Below are positions 3,034-9,474 of a stretch of DNA of 64,000 nucleotides, piece after piece. A program made the translations under genes and the position numbers. Numbering within the stretch: the first letter of the stretch is position 1; each line of letters begins with the position of its first letter. Under the pieces are notes generated by a model, which was not told the origin of the DNA, did not search any database, and saw only the letters and a program-made list of their open reading frames with translations. This stretch comes from an uncultured Acidobacteriaceae bacterium (GTDB lineage: Bacteria; Acidobacteriota; Terriglobia; Terriglobales; Acidobacteriaceae): NCBI GenBank assembly GCA_963796615.1, contig CAWCMJ010000019.1, positions 194,486-258,485 of the forward strand. Direction: 5' to 3'.

Positions 3034-4110
3034 ATGCTTACCACCGGACCAGCCAAGAAAGTGAGCGTCTACGTCATCGAGGGCCACACCTATCACGGCA
3101 CCGCTTGTTATGCGGCCATCCTCGATTACCTGTTCTTCCGGGGCATCTCCGATGCAACCGTTACCCGCGGCATGGCCGGCTTCGGGACTGACCACAAGCT
3201 GCACACCTCGCGACTAGTGCAGGTTTCTGACCAGATGCCGATCAAGATCGAGTTCATCGAGACCGCGGAGCGGGTCGAGCAAGTCTTGCCCAAGCTGACC
3301 GAGATCGCCGCGCATGGACTGATCGAGGTGCACGATACGACGGTGATCTGCCCGTCCACCGACAAAGACAAGCTGCAAGCGGAAGTGCCCGCCGTCAAAC
3401 TCGAGTCCAAAGCCAAGATGATGCGAATCCTGATTGGCGAGCACGACCGATGGCACGACCAACCTCTTTATCACGCGCTGGTGCAGGCCTTGCGGTCGAA
3501 CGACATCGCCGGAGTCACGGTGTACCGGGGAATCCTGGGGTACGGGGCGAACCGCCGCATTCACAAGGATTCGACGCTTAACCTGTCTCACGATGCGCCC
3601 ATCCTGCTGACGGCGGTCGATAGCGAGGAGAAGCTGCGGGCGGTCATTCCGGTTCTCGACCAGATGGTGCTGCAAGGGTTGGTGGTGCTCTCCGACGTCG
3701 ATGTCATCAAGTATTCGCACGCTCAACCTCTGGCCGGAGACACTGGGGGTGCAGAAATGAAGCTGGTTGGCCAAGCCAAGATGTTGCGCATTTACTTCGG
3801 TGAGGACGACCGGTGGCAGGGGCGTCCGCTGTACCAGGCCATCGTCGAGCGCTGCCGCGAGTTGGACATTGCCGGCGCCTCGGTGTATCGCGGTTTTGAA
3901 GGCTATGGGGCGAGCACCATGATCCGCAAGTCGCATCTGTTCCGGCGGTCGTCGGATGCGCCAATTCTGGTGCAGATCGTTGACACCGCGGAGAACATCC
4001 AGCGCCTGATACCGGCATTGGACGAAATGGTAGCGGAAGGACTAATCGCCACCTCCGACGTTGAGGTCATCAAGTACGTGCATCAGCAGGGAGAGCATCC
4101 ACAGTTGTGA
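3034..4110 (+). CDS. Triple DUF190 (UPF0166, PII/GlnB-like fold) domain protein
   Basis: Three tandem copies of about 100 aa of the DUF190 signature: KVSVYVIEGHT..VTRGMAGFG; KMMRILIGEHDRWHDQPLYHALV..VTVYRGILGYG; KMLRIYFGEDDRWQGRPLYQAIV..ASVYRGFEGYG. Each ends in (E/D)V.VIKY. Confidence 0.85.
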   Translation: MLTTGPAKKVSVYVIEGHTYHGTACYAAILDYLFFRGISDATVTRGMAGFGTDHKLHTSRLVQVSDQMPIKIEFIETAERVEQVLPKLTEIAAHGLIEVHDTTVICPSTDKDKLQAEVPAVKLESKAKMMRILIGEHDRWHDQPLYHALVQALRSNDIAGVTVYRGILGYGANRRIHKDSTLNLSHDAPILLTAVDSEEKLRAVIPVLDQMVLQGLVVLSDVDVIKYSHAQPLAGDTGGAEMKLVGQAKMLRIYFGEDDRWQGRPLYQAIVERCRELDIAGASVYRGFEGYGASTMIRKSHLFRRSSDAPILVQIVDTAENIQRLIPALDEMVAEGLIATSDVEVIKYVHQQGEHPQL

Positions 4111-4889
4111 CCACGGCAAACTCCGACTCGGGGAACTGCGGACCGCCGGCGACGCTGCCGAGCATCTTCGCGCGAGAGGCGGAGATCGAGGAACTGCGAG
4201 CGCGCTTCGGCCGGCGACGGTCGTTTCTGTTGCATGGGCCCGCAGGCGTCGGCAAGACCTTATTATTGTCGGCCGTATGTCCGGAATTCCGTGATGTGCT
4301 GTGCTGCGCGCTGAATCCGACCCCGCAGGCGCTGTACAGGAACCTGGCGGGAGCGCTGTTCGCGGCGCGAGACCAAAAGATCACGAAGGCGTGCCCGGGC
4401 GGATTCGCGGCCCTGCAAGAACAGAAGTCGGCGGTGGCGTTGAAAGGCATCGTACGCGAGGCGCTGCGAAATTCCGGATACCTGCTGGTGCTCGATCACC
4501 TCGCACGCCCCTCGCAGTCGCTGGCGGCATCGATCCGCGAGTTGATGGTGGAGTGTTCCCTGCCGGTGGTCGCGGTATCGCGGTCCGCTCACATGGAAGA
4601 CGCGGGTTTCGTCTTGCCGCTGTTTCCAGATAGGGCTGAGAAATTCGCGTTGCGGAATTTCGATTCCGAAACGGCGACACGTTTTGCCGCGTGGTGTGCG
4701 CACCGCGAAGGATTGACCGCCGAAAACCTGCAGCAGTTTCTGGACAAGGTCGCGGTTTACAGCGCAGGCAATCCCGGCGCCATCGAGCACATGATTCGGC
4801 TGGCGAAATCGCCCCAGTACTCCTGCGGCGGGCAGATCAAGACGGCCCCGCTGTACATCGACTTCAAGATGGCGATGGTCAGTCAATGA
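4107..4889 (+). CDS. AAA-type ATPase (P-loop NTPase, ORC/Cdc6-like)
   Basis: Walker A LLHGPAGVGKTLLL and Walker B-like LLVLDH. The GTG start overlaps the upstream stop (GTGA at 4107-4110). Confidence 0.7.
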   Translation: MTTANSDSGNCGPPATLPSIFAREAEIEELRARFGRRRSFLLHGPAGVGKTLLLSAVCPEFRDVLCCALNPTPQALYRNLAGALFAARDQKITKACPGGFAALQEQKSAVALKGIVREALRNSGYLLVLDHLARPSQSLAASIRELMVECSLPVVAVSRSAHMEDAGFVLPLFPDRAEKFALRNFDSETATRFAAWCAHREGLTAENLQQFLDKVAVYSAGNPGAIEHMIRLAKSPQYSCGGQIKTAPLYIDFKMAMVSQ

Positions 4890-6634
4890 GCTCCGATCCG
4901 GCCGCCAACCTGCCACGGGTGAATGACCCTGCAGTTTCCACCCCGGCTGCGACCGATGGGCAATCTCTCAACCGGCTGGCGGAAGTCGCCGATCAACTCG
5001 GCGAAAGCGCGATCGCCGCCAACATCCGGCAGCTCGCGACCAGGGTCCACGAAGGCCGCTTCTTCGTGGCTTGCGTCGGCCAGTTCAAGCGCGGCAAGTC
5101 AACCCTGCTCAACGCCCTCACCGGAGAAGCCATCCTGCCGACCGGCGTGGTGCCGGTGACGGCGGTGCCCACGGTGCTTCGCTACGGCAACGCGCGATCC
5201 GCGCGTGTCCTGATTGGCGGCGCATGGAGCCCGGTGCCGGCCGAAGACCTTGCGCAGTACGTTTCCGAGGAGTTGAATCCGGAAAACTCGAAGCAGCTTG
5301 AAGGCGTCGAGGTATTTCTTCCGTCGCCGCTGCTGGCCTCGGGCATGTGCCTGGTCGATACCCCGGGAATTGGTTCGGTCTTCGCCGGAAACACCGAGAC
5401 GGCGAAGGACTTCATCCCGCAGATTGACGCCGCCATCCTGGTGGTGGGCGCCGATCCGCCCATCTCGGGCGAAGAACTCGCGCTCATTGAGGCCGTGGCC
5501 GCCAACGTTTGTGAGATTGTGATCGTGCTGAACAAGATCGACCGCGTTTCCCTGGCGGATCGAAAAGAAGCGTCGGCATTCGCCCGCAAGATTCTGCGGA
5601 CGCGGCTGAAAAAGCCCGTGGTTCGCATCTATGAGGTCAGCGCGCTCAACCGCTTGAACAGCTCAAACACCGGCGACGACTGGAGCGCGCTGCTCTCGGA
5701 CCTCGCCGCCCTCGCCGCCGGCTTCGGCCAGGCCATGACGCGTTCGGCCGCCGAGCGCGGGCTTCGCCGCTTTTCGGCTTCCCTGCAGCGTTCCATCGCC
5801 GAACGCCGCCGCGCATTGCACGAGCCGATCGCGGCCTCCGAGCAGCGCATGGTAACGCTGCGGGCAACGCTGGACGAGGCCGAGCAATGGCTGCGCGATC
5901 TGGGCACGCTCTTTTCGGCGGAACAGTTGCGGCTCTCCAACGCACTGCTGGCGCGCCGCAAAGAGTTCTTACGAAGTGCGCTGCCGCAGGCGAGAAACGA
6001 ACTCACGCTCGAATGCAATGGAGTCACAACGGCGTTTGGCCCGGCACGACGACGCGAAATGCTGGCCCTGGCACAGGGCGTCGCGCGCCGCCACGTCATG
6101 CCCTGGCTAGACAACGAGGAGACACAGGCCGAAGAGCTCTACGGTGCGGTCACGCAGCGCTTCGTCAATCTGGTGAATGGTTTACTGCAGCGGATCGCCG
6201 AAGAGCAGTCCGATTGCTTCTGCAATTTGCCCAAGTCTCTGGAAACCGAACAGGGCTTCCGCATCCGCTCCCGCTTTTATTTCCAGGACATGATCGGCAT
6301 CGCGCAGCCGGCGTCGCCGCTCATCTATGTGTCGGACGTGCTGCTCGGGATTCTCGGCATACGCTATTTTTTCCGGAAGTCCGCCAACAACTTCCTCGAG
6401 CTCTTGATGGATACCAATGCCTCGCGCGTCCAGGGCGATGTGGAACAGCGGGTAGTCGAGAGCCGCCAGCGACTGGAGTTCGAAGTGCGCAAACTGCTTC
6501 GCGAGGTAAGCACCTCTGCCGAGCAGGCCCTAACCACGGCGCGGGCGCTCGTGGACGCAGGCAGTACTGCCGTAGAAACTGAGCTTGCGCGCCTTCGGGG
6601 CCTCAAACAACAGATCGCGGCCGCCGCCGCGTGA
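4886..6634 (+). CDS. Dynamin-like GTPase (bacterial dynamin-like protein)
   Basis: G1 GQFKRGKSTLLNAL, G3 LVDTPGIGS, G4 LNKID, and a long helical C-terminal stalk. The ATG at 4886 overlaps the ATPase stop (ATGA). The upstream part of ORF 4691..6634 is an out-of-context extension. Confidence 0.8.
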   Translation: MSSDPAANLPRVNDPAVSTPAATDGQSLNRLAEVADQLGESAIAANIRQLATRVHEGRFFVACVGQFKRGKSTLLNALTGEAILPTGVVPVTAVPTVLRYGNARSARVLIGGAWSPVPAEDLAQYVSEELNPENSKQLEGVEVFLPSPLLASGMCLVDTPGIGSVFAGNTETAKDFIPQIDAAILVVGADPPISGEELALIEAVAANVCEIVIVLNKIDRVSLADRKEASAFARKILRTRLKKPVVRIYEVSALNRLNSSNTGDDWSALLSDLAALAAGFGQAMTRSAAERGLRRFSASLQRSIAERRRALHEPIAASEQRMVTLRATLDEAEQWLRDLGTLFSAEQLRLSNALLARRKEFLRSALPQARNELTLECNGVTTAFGPARRREMLALAQGVARRHVMPWLDNEETQAEELYGAVTQRFVNLVNGLLQRIAEEQSDCFCNLPKSLETEQGFRIRSRFYFQDMIGIAQPASPLIYVSDVLLGILGIRYFFRKSANNFLELLMDTNASRVQGDVEQRVVESRQRLEFEVRKLLREVSTSAEQALTTARALVDAGSTAVETELARLRGLKQQIAAAAA

Positions 6635-6851
6635 TCCCTTTCCCGAAATCGCCAAAGCCATCGACCTTATGACGGACGAGACAATCTCCGTCAGCGACCA
6701 CCAGTTGAAAGAGCTTGGGTGTTCGAGTGTGCCTCCTGCGGCCGGGCAGGAGGCGTCACAGTACGGCAGGCACCCCCCACACGATAGCTCATTTTATTGA
6801 TAACTGTTTTATTTGTAATAGCTTACTGCGATTAACCTCTCGGCAGCAATG

Positions 6852-6892
6852 GTGGCCACTATATTGACATTTGGTGGCCACTTCGGTATATT
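6852..6892 (+). promoter_or_regulatory. Sigma70-like promoter (TTGACA-17 nt-TATATT) bracketed by two GTGGCCAC palindromes
   Basis: TTGACA at 6864-6869 and TATATT at 6887-6892 with a 17-nt spacer. The palindrome GTGGCCAC sits at 6852-6859 and 6874-6881. AGGAG at 6911-6915 precedes the ATG at 6923. Confidence 0.55.
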
Positions 6893-6922
6893 TGATTTGG
6901 AATTGCAGTCAGGAGATTTGTT

Positions 6923-7351
6923 ATGGATATCGACTTTCTATCGGCGGTTCGCTCCCTGTCATCCTTGCGGCAGGAACCAGAGCTTGAAAACCGCCTCTCC
7001 GAATTGCTCCAAAACACTTCAGGCAACGCTCCCTTGACCATCAAGGGCGCTCGGGATAAGTTCAGTGCGGTCAATAGTATGGCAAAACGCGGACGGATCA
7101 TGATTATAAAAGGGAGGCCGGGAGAGGAAACGGTCATTGTCTCTATCAAGTCCCTCGCTGCGTTGATCCGGGCGGCATCTGCCAACTTGAGCTTCGCCGA
7201 TGCGCTTGACGCTGCCGGATTTCAACCTGCGGGGCAGCGACTTATACAGAGCGAGGGCTTCAAGCGTGACGACAACCTCGTACTCAAGTCGCAACCGGAC
7301 GAGGCCGGCGAATTGAATACGGGAGAGCTTGCAGCGGGCGCCGAAAACTAG
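6923..7351 (+). CDS. Phd/YefM-like antitoxin-family protein with N- and C-terminal extensions (142 aa)
   Basis: The core LTIKGARDKFSAVNSMAKRGRIMIIKGRPGEETVIVSIKSLAALI resembles the Phd/YefM fold signature (..ITR.G.P.AVLVS.eeyeal). Good SD. First gene behind the promoter. Confidence 0.55.
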   Translation: MDIDFLSAVRSLSSLRQEPELENRLSELLQNTSGNAPLTIKGARDKFSAVNSMAKRGRIMIIKGRPGEETVIVSIKSLAALIRAASANLSFADALDAAGFQPAGQRLIQSEGFKRDDNLVLKSQPDEAGELNTGELAAGAEN

Positions 7352-7362
7352 GCAGTTGCCGT

Positions 7363-7794
7363 ATGATTTACTTGCTCTCAACCCAATCTCTGCTCGATTT
7401 AGTCACCGGGGAAGTCCTAATGACGACTTGGCTGCGAGGGATACCCTTGCAGCCGGTCGAAATCAGCACCGTGTCCATTGGCCGCGTTCTGGAAACGATC
7501 CGGAAGGTCGAGAACATCGCCGCCCGGAAGCACTATGAGCGGCAGCTTTCCATTATCGTGACCGCTGCCAACCACATTCAGGGCGTGGTACCGTTCGATG
7601 AGGATGCGGCTAAAATCTGGTCCGAGTTGCAGGGCCTGACGCTAAAATATACTCTGCCCGACGGAACCATGACCGACTTGAGCAGCGAGTCGCGCATGGT
7701 CGTTGCCACCGCGCTCGCTCGCGGCGCGACGCTGGTCGAGGCCCAGCAACCCTATCACCAGTCCATTGAGCGCTTGACCATCGAAAGCCCATGA
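7363..7794 (+). CDS. PIN-domain (VapC/FitB-like) protein, apparently lacking canonical acidic catalytic residues
   Basis: MIYLLSTQSLL (compare ..LLDTNV..), V..WL, VVPFDEDAAKIWSEL (compare ilpFD..aA..wa.L), and SRMVVATALARGATLVE (compare D..IAAtAl.hg..LvT.N). By eye the D/E/D/D positions read S/R/E-or-S/none. Confidence 0.6.
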   Translation: MIYLLSTQSLLDLVTGEVLMTTWLRGIPLQPVEISTVSIGRVLETIRKVENIAARKHYERQLSIIVTAANHIQGVVPFDEDAAKIWSELQGLTLKYTLPDGTMTDLSSESRMVVATALARGATLVEAQQPYHQSIERLTIESP

Positions 7795-8798
7795 CTTCTG
7801 ATCTCCAAATCACTGGTCCAGAGGTGCGCCCGGATCCCGCTCCTCCACCTTTCCAGATCTTGTGTCTTTCCGGCGGTGGTTATCGGGGCCTTTATACCGC
7901 TGCGCTTCTTGAGGAACTCGAAAAAGAGGAAAATGCGAACAAGTCGCTCTCCAAGGTTTTCGACCTTATCGCGGGCACTTCGATCGGCGGCATTCTCGCG
8001 ATTGGATTGGCTGCTGGGATCCCCGCAAAGACCCTACGCGAGTCGTTCGAAAAAAGCGGCAGCGCCATCTTCCCGCGTTCTCTTAAGGTTCTTGGCGTTC
8101 CAGTGTTTCCGCGTTTGGGTAGTGGGATGCTGTTCAGCAAGTATGGTGCAGATGGGCTCCGAGCGACAATTGAGGCGGTTCTCGGCAGCACCGTTTCCCT
8201 TCGTCCCTTAAAAGATCTGAAGGAGAAAGTACTCATCGCGAGTGTCGATGTTACCAACAGTGGTCCGAAGCTCTTTGGCATCGATGGGGCAGATTCTGCC
8301 ACTCCACTGCTTGACATCGCCCTCGCAACTTCCGCCGCTCCCACTTATTTTCCTGAACACCGGATTGACCAGAATATCTACGTTGACGGCGGACTGATTG
8401 CCAATGCACCCGATATCATCGCCTTGATGCATACTTTGCAGCGCGAACCTTCGGCGCAAATCCAAATGCTCAGCATTGGGACAGTCGGTGAATTGGGCGG
8501 AGAAGCCTCGCGTGCAGCGAACCGCCGTGGCTGGCTGCTACGGGGCAAGGGATTGGTGGATCTCACTCTGGCAGCGCAGGAGAAGCTCTCGATCAGCCTC
8601 ACTGCGAATTTCCTTGGCCAGAATTACATCCGTCTCGATGCCAACCCATCCCAGGACCAGCAGAAGGCGATCGGGCTGGACCGAACTGACCAGGAGGCTA
8701 CCGACACTCTCAAGGCGCTGGCCCGCAAGACTGCCGAAGACGGACTCAAGCAGCACCAGGCCAAACTCCGTGCAATGCTCAATCGCACGGCCAAGTAA
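7791..8798 (+). CDS. Patatin-like phospholipase
   Basis: Oxyanion hole LSGGGYRG, nucleophile elbow GTSIGG, and catalytic Asp in YVDGGLIANAP. The ATG overlaps the stop of the PIN-like gene (ATGA at 7791-7794). Confidence 0.85.
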   Translation: MTSDLQITGPEVRPDPAPPPFQILCLSGGGYRGLYTAALLEELEKEENANKSLSKVFDLIAGTSIGGILAIGLAAGIPAKTLRESFEKSGSAIFPRSLKVLGVPVFPRLGSGMLFSKYGADGLRATIEAVLGSTVSLRPLKDLKEKVLIASVDVTNSGPKLFGIDGADSATPLLDIALATSAAPTYFPEHRIDQNIYVDGGLIANAPDIIALMHTLQREPSAQIQMLSIGTVGELGGEASRAANRRGWLLRGKGLVDLTLAAQEKLSISLTANFLGQNYIRLDANPSQDQQKAIGLDRTDQEATDTLKALARKTAEDGLKQHQAKLRAMLNRTAK

Positions 8799-8899
8799 TC
8801 CCGGCTGGTGTTCCACTCCGCCCCCAAAATTTCCGAATCCTATTTAGTCGGCACTCCGTCCCGCCTTCAGTTAGCAGGGTGGAGGTTTCTTTTGGCTGA

Positions 8900-9193
8900 T
8901 TAGGCAGCCATTTCGGCTCCCCGCCGCCGGGTTAACTTGGAGCGTTTATGCACTCCTTCGTTCTCTACGCAATACACAATCACGACTTCGCCGATGGCCA
9001 AGCTGCGGTATCCAGGGCCGAAATCTCCATCTCGCCAACGGCCCAGACACGGAAAGGTAGCTTGCGCGAGAAAACGGTCAGTGAGGATATCAATCAGGCG
9101 GTCGGCCGTCTCGGGCATGCGGCGCGCAGCCAGACTTCTCCGATAGCGAAGCAAACCGGGCGCCCGCAATTGCCATTGGCAGTTGTGGGCCAA
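8900..9193 (-). pseudogene. ParE/RelE-family toxin-like remnant (no cognate antitoxin gene seen)
   Basis: PETADRLIDILTDRF..LGRWRDGDFGPGYRSLAIGEVVIVYCVENEGV resembles the ParE core. The N-terminus and C-terminal tail look non-canonical or truncated. Only about 50 nt lie upstream before iscX. Confidence 0.35.
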
Positions 9194-9246
9194 CTCGGCC
9201 TGTCGCGACTTGCGTTATAATCCCTCACACGTTCCGGAGGAAGCTC

Positions 9247-9474
9247 ATGGCACAGGAATTGACTTGGGAAGACATCAGCAGAATCGGGATCACGCTCTCC
9301 AACACGCATCCTGCGGTTGAGCCGGACAAGGTCGAGTTGAAACGCTTGCACGATTACGTGACCCAGCTCAATGAGTTCAAGGGTGACCCCGAGAAGTTCG
9401 ATGAGCAGAAGCTGGCGGCGATCCGCTCAGCGTGGATCACGGAGTTCCTGGAGCGCACCCGCAACTGGGCATAG
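9247..9474 (+). CDS. iscX: Fe-S cluster assembly protein IscX (YfhJ family)
   Basis: LTWEDISRIGITLSNTHPAVEPDKVELKRLHDYVTQLNEFKGDPEKFDEQKLAAIRSAW aligns along its length with E. coli IscX ([59 protein letters not shown]). Confidence 0.8.
   Translation: MAQELTWEDISRIGITLSNTHPAVEPDKVELKRLHDYVTQLNEFKGDPEKFDEQKLAAIRSAWITEFLERTRNWA

Follow-up and report, generated by a model that had tools for sequence, protein, structure and literature searches.

The window analyzed here is a stretch of 64,000 nucleotides (64 kb) from an uncultured Acidobacteriaceae bacterium (contig CAWCMJ010000019.1 of assembly GCA_963796615.1, positions 194,486 to 258,485 of the forward strand). At positions 6923–8798 it carries three adjacent genes, called the triad below, that code for a Phd/YefM-like protein (gene 1), a PIN-fold protein (gene 2), and a patatin phospholipase (gene 3). 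The triad may be a toxin–antitoxin (TA)-like killing module built around an effector of CBASS, the antiphage system that signals through cyclic oligonucleotides. The genes and the signals around them are the following.

6850..6860, + strand: candidate operator O1, an 11-nt repeat (TGGTGGCCACT) containing the palindrome GTGGCCAC at 6852-6859, just upstream of the -35 box
6864..6892, + strand: sigma-70-type promoter, with TTGACA at 6864-6869, a 17-nt spacer, and TATATT at 6887-6892 (11 of 12 consensus positions)
6872..6882, + strand: candidate operator O2, the second copy of TGGTGGCCACT, with its palindrome at 6874-6881, within the promoter spacer
6911..6915, + strand: Shine–Dalgarno-like AGGAG, 7 nt 5′ of the gene 1 ATG, read from the sequence
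6923..7351, + strand: gene 1, 142 amino acids, Phd/YefM-like antitoxin-type protein
7363..7794, + strand: gene 2, 143 amino acids, VapC/FitB-type PIN fold without the catalytic acidic residues
7791..8798, + strand: gene 3, 335 amino acids, CapV-type patatin phospholipase
8861-8882, + strand: terminator-like hairpin followed by a T-rich tail to 8892, 63 nt past the gene 3 stop (a consensus match only, the number of such hairpins in the region not being above that in shuffled sequences)

The first-pass annotation, made from the letters alone, had described a tight operon, with 11 nt between genes 1 and 2 and with genes 2 and 3 overlapping in ATGA (stop/start); junctions and coordinates are exactly as it gave them. 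Its single promoter is also borne out, the only + strand promoter-like site within 6600–9300 being the one 5′ of gene 1, but the conserved twin operators at this promoter had escaped notice.

The lipase, its nucleotide pocket, and its partners

The product of gene 3 contains the patatin motifs GGGYRG (residues 28–33), GTSIG (residues 62–66, with the nucleophile S64), and DGG (residues 199–201), and the catalytic residues R32, S64, and D199 are all intact. It matches Pfam Patatin (PF01734) at 8.9e-28 with 98.2 bits (cut-off 27.7), so that the earlier identification of a patatin-like phospholipase with all its catalytic elements is secure. The closer relationship, to the CapV lipases of CBASS, had been missed, together with the loss of their pocket for cyclic GMP-AMP (cGAMP). 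Gene 3 matches the PADLOC model for the CBASS phospholipase effector at 1.2e-78, the NCBIfam equivalog NF041079 (CBASS_lipase) with 271.6 bits (cut-off 200), and the solved CapV structures at 2e-39. The patatin motifs are kept in 118/118 aligned homologues, no sequence having lost the catalytic Arg, Ser, or Asp.

In AbCapV, the cGAMP pocket has been defined experimentally and comprises F147, K149, D159, E207, and R279; mutation of K149, E207, or R279 abolishes cGAMP-induced filament formation and activity (PMC12480259). Without ligand, CapV is auto-inhibited, the ligand being needed to glue the protomers into filaments (PMC12480259). At the five pocket positions, the alignment places L161, G163, D168, H214, and A272 of gene 3, and a deletion of five residues removes the HNPMF loop. 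Read from this alignment, gene 3 codes for a patatin of the CapV type whose active site is intact but whose cyclic-dinucleotide pocket has been dismantled; it is the presumed killing effector of the triad. The lipase tail LRxMLNR was considered as a triad-specific PIN-binding peptide and rejected, because cyclase-linked CapVs carry a similar tail.

The partners of such lipases were compared in a metagenome scan with the triad-lipase alignment, from which the best 80 of at least 314 loci were taken (35–72% identity). Three local hidden Markov models (HMMs) served to classify the loci, one each for the PIN without catalytic residues (the dead PIN), gene 1, and DncV-like cyclases. The home-made cyclase HMM was seeded from the neighbor of the lipase of locus P0297 and built from 38 cyclases adjacent to CapV-type lipases. 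Two loci served as controls, P0297 with a KTPH loop and an adjacent DncV-like nucleotidyltransferase, and P0289 with no loop and set in a triad. The counts below cover unique loci in which the lipase has 1.4 kb or more of sequence on either side; residue numbers are those of AbCapV.

Lipases with Lys at 149: adjacent cyclase, 16; PIN directly upstream, 0; neither, 2
Lipases without Lys at 149: adjacent cyclase, 0; PIN directly upstream, 11; neither, 1

The association between residue type at 149 and partner has p = 2.2e-7 (Fisher's exact test), although the loci are phylogenetically non-independent and both this test and the covariation counts given below overstate the number of independent events. 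The same division appears at the other pocket positions. Among 32 unique cyclase-linked lipases, N139, K149, H152, and H206 are invariant, position 279 is H or R in 97%, and F216 is kept in 94%; among 36 unique PIN-linked lipases, none of the six positions is conserved and H152 is usually deleted. Positions N139, K149, H152, H206, and 279 are part of the cGAMP site as defined by experiment in AbCapV (PMC12480259).

With the local cyclase HMM, no cyclase was found at E <= 1 in any open reading frame (ORF) of at least 60 amino acids in the window, and none in any PIN-linked locus, in agreement with the first-pass remark that no cyclase is present. On these comparisons, the lipase is one that kept its chemistry, lost its nucleotide sensor, and gained a different upstream partner.

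Positions 149 and 207, which contact the adenine in AbCapV, change together in the lipases that lack K149. Where both residues are charged, the charges are opposite in 71/71 sequences (30 with +/- and 41 with -/+), and 207 is the best covariation partner of 149 among 20 testable columns. The joint swap of charge suggests a salt bridge in place of a ligand contact, but it may reflect few clade-level switches, and the clade of the window has G and H at these positions (G163 and H214).

Two smaller groups of lipases fall outside the two main types. The lipases L077, L085, and L086 have the loop RPH[IL]FRGPxCAQ, no CapV lysine, and no cyclase nearby; in L086, the start of the lipase gene is overlapped by an ORF of 115 amino acids, upstream of which is a helicase-like gene on the opposite strand. 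This clade may represent a third way of wiring the effector. The lipases L101 and L103 have a CapV-type pocket (K149, D159, E207) and no detectable cyclase in the ~4 kb available on each side; they are either true orphan CapVs, or their cyclase is too divergent for the local HMM.

The upstream pair and its operators

Gene 2 has no match in the curated families of Pfam, PADLOC, or NCBIfam, Pfam PIN (PF01850) included; 5/20 members of the core family match Pfam PIN weakly (best E 0.0041). The fold is nevertheless clear from the AlphaFold2 model built on the family alignment, with a mean predicted local distance difference test (pLDDT) score of 96.4. In a Foldseek comparison of this model with the PDB, the best matches, at least 25, are all VapC or FitB proteins, with a probability of 1.00, template modeling (TM) scores of 0.6–0.73, and E down to 5e-7 (among them Rickettsia VapC2, FitB, and VapC of Shigella, Salmonella, and the F plasmid). 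By sequence, the best PDB match of the family profile is also FitB (E 0.015).

The acidic residues of the nuclease site have been replaced. The N-terminal motif LLDT has become LLST or LLAT in 20/20 core members, and in the profile alignment with FitB, E42 corresponds to Q/R41 and D104 to S110 of gene 2. An alignment in which Shigella VapC served only as a guide places S6, R41, S110, and Y131 at the four acidic positions, where the core family has S/A, Q/R, S/T/G, and Y/F, respectively; of the four, the last is aligned with the least certainty, and there is a conserved E/D126 close to it. A PIN domain that lacks all four acidic residues throughout its core family should not be a conventional ribonuclease toxin. 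In the 20 core members, the mean column identity is 62% and 21 positions are invariant; such strong conservation despite the lost acidic residues points to a pseudo-nuclease under selection rather than a decaying gene. The first-pass description of a degenerate VapC/FitB-like PIN thus holds both for the fold (TM ~0.7) and for the loss of the acidic tetrad, which extends over the core family. A cyclase split or degraded into genes 1 and 2 was considered and rejected, since the PIN fold of gene 2 is confidently predicted and neither gene is shortened in its family.

More distant triads link the core family to ordinary PIN proteins. The PINs of the remote triads L079, L051, L058, and L069 score 28–37 bits on Pfam PIN (cut-off 23.6) and are homologous to gene 2 by the local HMM. 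Two of these loci, L051 and L079, are intermediate forms, with an FR[TS]PHH loop in the lipase and two to three acidic residues in the PIN; their sequences hint at the evolutionary path. In an exhaustive profile search, the PIN of gene 2 falls within a superfamily of ~213 clusters (at 50% identity), nearly all without the first catalytic Asp; the pairing with a patatin was confirmed down to a profile E of ~1e-13, and ~150 outer clusters of the superfamily lie beyond. A look for the distant dead-PIN relatives P0073, P0095, and P0060 on plasmids was uninformative.

Of the three proteins, that of gene 1 has the least certain assignment. In the window, its match to Pfam PhdYeFM (PF02604) has E 0.084 and 13.1 bits (cut-off 29.8). 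PhdYeFM is the only Pfam family that recurs in the gene 1 family (10/18 members, all below threshold, best E 0.0025), and a search of PDB sequences with the family profile gave no match. The positional orthologues in the remote triads do pass the PhdYeFM cut-off, with 33.4 bits in L079 and 38.2 bits in L051, and hhalign aligns the core gene 1 family with these orthologues over a Phd core of 71 residues (E 1.4e-4, probability 53%). Around this core, gene 1 has a conserved N-terminal extension of ~35 amino acids and a conserved C-terminal tail. A Phd/YefM-like core with extra termini, as first proposed, is therefore below threshold in the window and above it in the remote orthologues. Since both upstream genes exceed their Pfam cut-offs in the remote triads, the pair descends from true Phd/YefM–VapC modules. 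Gene 1 is presumed to be the operator-binding repressor and the partner of gene 2.

The two copies of TGGTGGCCACT are exact and lie 22 nt apart. There are no other GTGGCCAC sites in the 64 kb than these two, and the window has a single instance of the pair, which 0/100 shuffles reproduce. Upstream of gene 1, 27 fetched loci have the same succession of palindrome, TTGACA, palindrome, and -10 box, with the palindromes spaced by 22–23 nt. The hosts of the pattern include Acidobacteria, Alphaproteobacteria, the remote Stenotrophomonas triad, and the plasmid pSWIT01 (5522-5552), while the surrounding DNA is unrelated. The twin palindromes are present in none of the CBASS loci examined, nor are they in the triad of Rhizobium leguminosarum.

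In VapBC and FitAB hetero-octamers, antitoxin dimers bridged by PIN dimers bind two palindromes two helical turns apart over the promoter. Complexes of this type (3zvk and 2bsq) are among the top structural matches of gene 2. Twin palindromes conserved across phyla, with flanks that are not, indicate autoregulation in the style of TA operons, and we infer, by analogy with VapBC and FitAB, that a complex of gene 1 and gene 2 would regulate its own operon.

The same data bring in the reading that genes 1 and 2 are nothing but a VapBC-derived repressor pair (compare CapH/CapP or BrxR-type regulators) and that the lipase is still switched by a diffusible small molecule made elsewhere, such as the product of a cyclase in trans or some other ligand. 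The layout of the operators fits a repressor, PIN dimers do bridge antitoxin dimers on DNA in 3zvk and 2bsq, and lipases with K149 and no adjacent cyclase exist (L101, L103). It is, however, in the PIN-linked lipases specifically that the pocket residues for a cyclic dinucleotide are lost, and the local HMM finds a cyclase neither in their loci nor in the 64-kb window. Further, the module moves on plasmids as a self-contained unit (see below), and a mere repressor needs no translational coupling between genes 2 and 3. We regard a purely regulatory pair as improbable.

Recurrence, mobility, and surroundings of the triad

Homologues of the two upstream genes are rare: at 90% identity, those of gene 1 form 13 clusters and those of gene 2 form 20. 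Every locus inspected from a gene 2 anchor has the three genes in identical order between unrelated flanks; these loci include the metagenome contigs L001–L012 and the remote relatives L013 and L014. Among ~185,000 species-representative genomes, the triad occurs in four (metagenome-assembled genomes, MAGs, of Allosphingosinicella and of an Acidobacteriaceae bacterium, and two cultured strains of Aurantiacibacter), a count obtained with the core gene 2 alignment that makes the taxonomic census a lower bound. It also occurs on eight plasmids, from Qipengyuania, Erythrobacteraceae, Sphingobium, Rhizorhabdus wittichii RW1 (pSWIT01), and Rhizobium leguminosarum, seven of which are conjugative or mobilizable. 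On the lipase side, the nearest relatives that carry the database name "CBASS cGAMP-activated phospholipase" are also in cyclase-less triads, those of Novosphingobium sp. G106, Mesorhizobium kowhaii, and Stenotrophomonas sp. SXG-1. The spread thus covers Acidobacteria, Alphaproteobacteria (Sphingomonadales and Rhizobiales), and Gammaproteobacteria (Stenotrophomonas), and cultured strains or natural plasmids with the triad are known (RW1 pSWIT01, Aurantiacibacter zhengii V18, and Stenotrophomonas sp. SXG-1).

The junction between genes 2 and 3 is kept as well: in 14 unique triads, it is -4 nt in 11, -1 nt in two, and +1 nt in one. The pairwise-identity matrices of the three proteins correlate with r = 0.83–0.92, so that the three genes are inherited together. 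The first-pass annotation had made its proposal depend on conservation of the triad as a unit elsewhere; this conservation is found across phyla and plasmids, at dozens of unrelated loci.

TA pairs and patatins are both common and mobile, and a ParE remnant close to the triad (see below) shows local decay of a TA module. A decaying VapBC pair could, on that account, have come to lie by coincidence beside an unrelated housekeeping or orphan patatin. The comparison of loci effectively refutes this: in every gene-2-anchored locus examined, across phyla and plasmids, the genes stay adjacent with overlapping stop and start codons, gene 2 is under purifying selection, the three proteins co-evolve, and distinct types of lipase have either a PIN or a cyclase as partner, the one excluding the other.

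The neighbors of the triad differ from one replicon to the next. In Stenotrophomonas (L022), the triad adjoins a Gabija-like pair; in L009, an integrase, IS66, and a NERD-kinase-helicase are near it. On plasmid plsm_A of Qipengyuania sp. HL-TH1 (L104, 1348-12453), parA/parB and repA directly precede it, genes for a toprim-domain protein and a strawberry-notch helicase lie 3′ of it, and a HEPN gene of the Swt1 family is close by. On the Aurantiacibacter chromosomal contigs L017 and L018, the triad is followed by this toprim gene as well, which suggests an integrated copy of the same element. In pSWIT01 (L105, CP000700.1), gene 1 is unannotated, its ORF being present at ~5590-6003 in the gap before Swit_5144 and Swit_5143. 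In the Allosphingosinicella MAG (L003/L015, 2909-5483) and in Novosphingobium sp. G106 (L019, 1650-4107), a PP2C phosphatase/Ser-Thr kinase pair stands directly upstream on the same strand; this could reflect shared island ancestry or a functional link, such as control by phosphorylation. In L007 and L012 (ENA ERZ250396xx assemblies), the triad lipase is frameshifted; the neighboring housekeeping genes (PPK2 and a short-chain dehydrogenase) are broken too, which makes indels of long-read assembly look likelier than pseudogenization.

The other features recorded in the window near the triad are the following.

2258-2335, + strand: fluoride riboswitch (Rfam RF01734, 34.4 bits, gathering score 34)
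3034-4110, + strand: protein with three DUF190/P-II-like repeats
4107-4889, + strand: AAA_16/nSTAND-like ATPase, overlapping the start of the dynamin-family GTPase gene
ending at 6634, + strand: dynamin-family GTPase of 647 amino acids, with weak PADLOC matches to LeoA (1.5e-11) and LeoBC (7e-9)
8900-9193, - strand: ParE-like ORF with a TTG start (Pfam ParE_toxin, 26 bits, cut-off 23)

The ParE-like ORF spans only positions 13–74 of the 89 in the ParE_toxin profile, its N-terminal part is missing, and no antitoxin-like partner was found when looked for; truncated and partnerless, it is plausibly a remnant, probably of a decayed ParDE module. It does not recur beside the triad at other loci. 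The G+C fraction is 0.51–0.55 at ~6500–7250 (promoter and gene 1) against 0.60–0.66 upstream. Of the AT-richer islet with a ParE remnant that had been proposed at first, the remnant is thus plausible, but the dip in composition is only modest, and neither belongs to the conserved unit; both are local accidents outside it.

Farther upstream, the fluoride riboswitch precedes the + strand gene set formed by 3034-4110, 4107-4889, and the GTPase gene ending at 6634. No CrcB was recognized between the riboswitch and the dynamin-like GTPase, and a GTPase of this kind possibly under fluoride control is unusual. The ATPase and the GTPase (4107–6634) could be a separate, uncharacterized module immediately upstream of the triad.

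A working model, its alternative, and known systems

We read the triad as a self-contained, autoregulated, three-gene TA-like killing module, in which a CapV lipase has lost its pocket and its cyclase and a VapBC-derived pair has become its new input; the probability that we attach to this reading is roughly 0.55. In the scheme that follows, all contacts between proteins and with DNA, as well as the trigger, the role in the cell, and the direction in which control runs, are what we infer from the sequences. The complex of gene 1 and gene 2 would bind the twin GTGGCCAC sites and repress the operon, and gene 1 would sequester gene 2 through its C-terminal tail, as VapB does VapC. Loss or titration of gene 1 (by plasmid loss, phage-induced shut-off, or proteolysis) would free the dead PIN, which would then act on the co-translated lipase; in the version that we favor, it would activate the lipase, auto-inhibited and CapV-like, in place of cGAMP. 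The active lipase would degrade the membrane and kill the cell, in abortive infection, in post-segregational killing, or in both.

The step at the lipase is the one where the TA-like module with a new input allows two opposite signs. In the first, favored version, which we put forward tentatively, the lipase is auto-inhibited and the PIN freed from gene 1 switches it on; that apo-CapV is auto-inhibited and requires a ligand favors an activator role for the new partner. On an equally tentative footing, the dead PIN may be a protein surrogate for the second messenger, docking on the remodeled cGAMP interface and nucleating the active, filamentous lipase.

In the second version, the main rival, loss of the pocket has unlocked the lipase, whose activity is constitutive, and a stoichiometric antitoxin is provided by the dead PIN, either by itself or together with gene 1; gene 1 is then mainly a repressor, and killing follows the decay of the neutralizer. 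The gene order and the -4 nt overlap resemble the antitoxin-to-toxin coupling of type II TA systems, the triad adjoins repA–parAB on a plasmid, the operators are conserved, the catalytic residues are universally intact, and the order repressor, antitoxin, toxin has an analogue in omega-epsilon-zeta. An additional change would, however, be required, because the CapV homologues are auto-inhibited in the apo state (PMC12480259). A folded PIN domain would also be an unusual labile antitoxin, and neither the conserved tail of gene 1 nor the ancestral relationship between genes 1 and 2 finds a reason. A constitutive lipase held by a neutralizer seems to us rather unlikely, though a good deal less so than a purely regulatory pair.

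Several points weigh against the module as we read it, with the PIN as activator. The activator role is favored by parsimony only, and the tight coupling of genes 2 and 3 fits a neutralizer equally well. The assignment of gene 1 in the core family rests on sub-threshold matches, and its AlphaFold2 model (pLDDT 43) is unusable. The cyclase HMM, built only from CapV-adjacent cyclases, could miss other signal synthases. The clade of L077, L085, and L086 has neither pocket nor PIN, so that loss of the pocket does not strictly need a PIN partner. None of the phage genomes carries the PIN gene, and the window's own neighbors are not defence genes and form no obvious defence island. The role of the module could be abortive infection, as the Gabija-like neighbor in Stenotrophomonas and the integrase, IS66, and NERD-helicase genes of L009 would have it, or plasmid addiction, from its position after parAB–repA on the Qipengyuania plasmid, or both.

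With type I CBASS, the triad shares the lipase, gene 3 being a CapV homologue of the same length with the same catalytic Arg, Ser, and Asp. It differs in having no cyclase in the operon, no cGAMP-pocket residues, partners derived from a TA system, and palindromic operators of its own. With VapBC and FitAB modules that have a Phd/YefM-type antitoxin, it shares the order antitoxin then PIN, the tight coupling, the fold of gene 2, and two palindromes about two helical turns apart over the promoter, as for a hetero-octameric repressor. Here the differences are a PIN without the four acidic residues and a coupled third gene, the lipase, which is the sole intact enzyme. As far as the sequence tells, the layout is that of a type II TA system, with an antitoxin-type gene upstream and coupled, and a promoter with conserved palindromes.

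Three-component TA systems are represented by omega-epsilon-zeta, PaaR-PaaA-ParE, and the TAC system HigBA-SecB. The triad has in common with them three co-transcribed genes, separate regulatory, neutralizing or adaptor, and killing roles, and a presence on plasmids and other mobile DNA; by sequence, it is related to them in nothing but the ancestry of its Phd and PIN proteins. We know of no three-component system with a phospholipase toxin, and of none with an inactivated toxin domain as the middle component.

In CBASS-DAC/Liu-DS2, a patatin effector has likewise had its upstream input exchanged in evolution, but that system retains a nucleotide synthase and the lipase residues that bind the signal (PMC13069673), which are both absent from the triad. 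PADLOC v2 (2023) has no model for gene 1 or gene 2, even in their Pfam-recognizable remote versions, and full-text searches of the literature, which cover it incompletely, returned no description of the triad, CBASS-DAC being the nearest. The earlier impression that this is not a described system agrees with these searches. What appears to be new is the combination of a TA-like module with a CBASS effector, the kinds of component being already known.

Of the two features that define CBASS, an operon cyclase and a nucleotide-sensing pocket (the latter judged by alignment), the triad has neither, yet its lipase passes the NCBIfam cut-off, a threshold that thus lets in lipases of cyclase-less triads too. 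In RefSeq, UniRef, and the NCBIfam equivalog, these lipases are named "CBASS cGAMP-activated phospholipase"; the label is an annotation error, and censuses of CBASS that count effectors will include cyclase-less systems. Residues K149, H152, H206, and H279 (AbCapV numbering) provide a simple signature that separates the two types of lipase.

One effector family with two mutually exclusive wirings gives a handle on how CapV is switched and on the exchange of sensors among defence modules. If the proposed working is true, a CBASS effector would have been rewired from a nucleotide alarm to a protein trigger of the TA type, and a lipase would have taken over the killing from a TA toxin; the triad would then show clearly, in bacteria, a toxin domain (the PIN) that has been inactivated yet is kept under selection as a regulator or adaptor.

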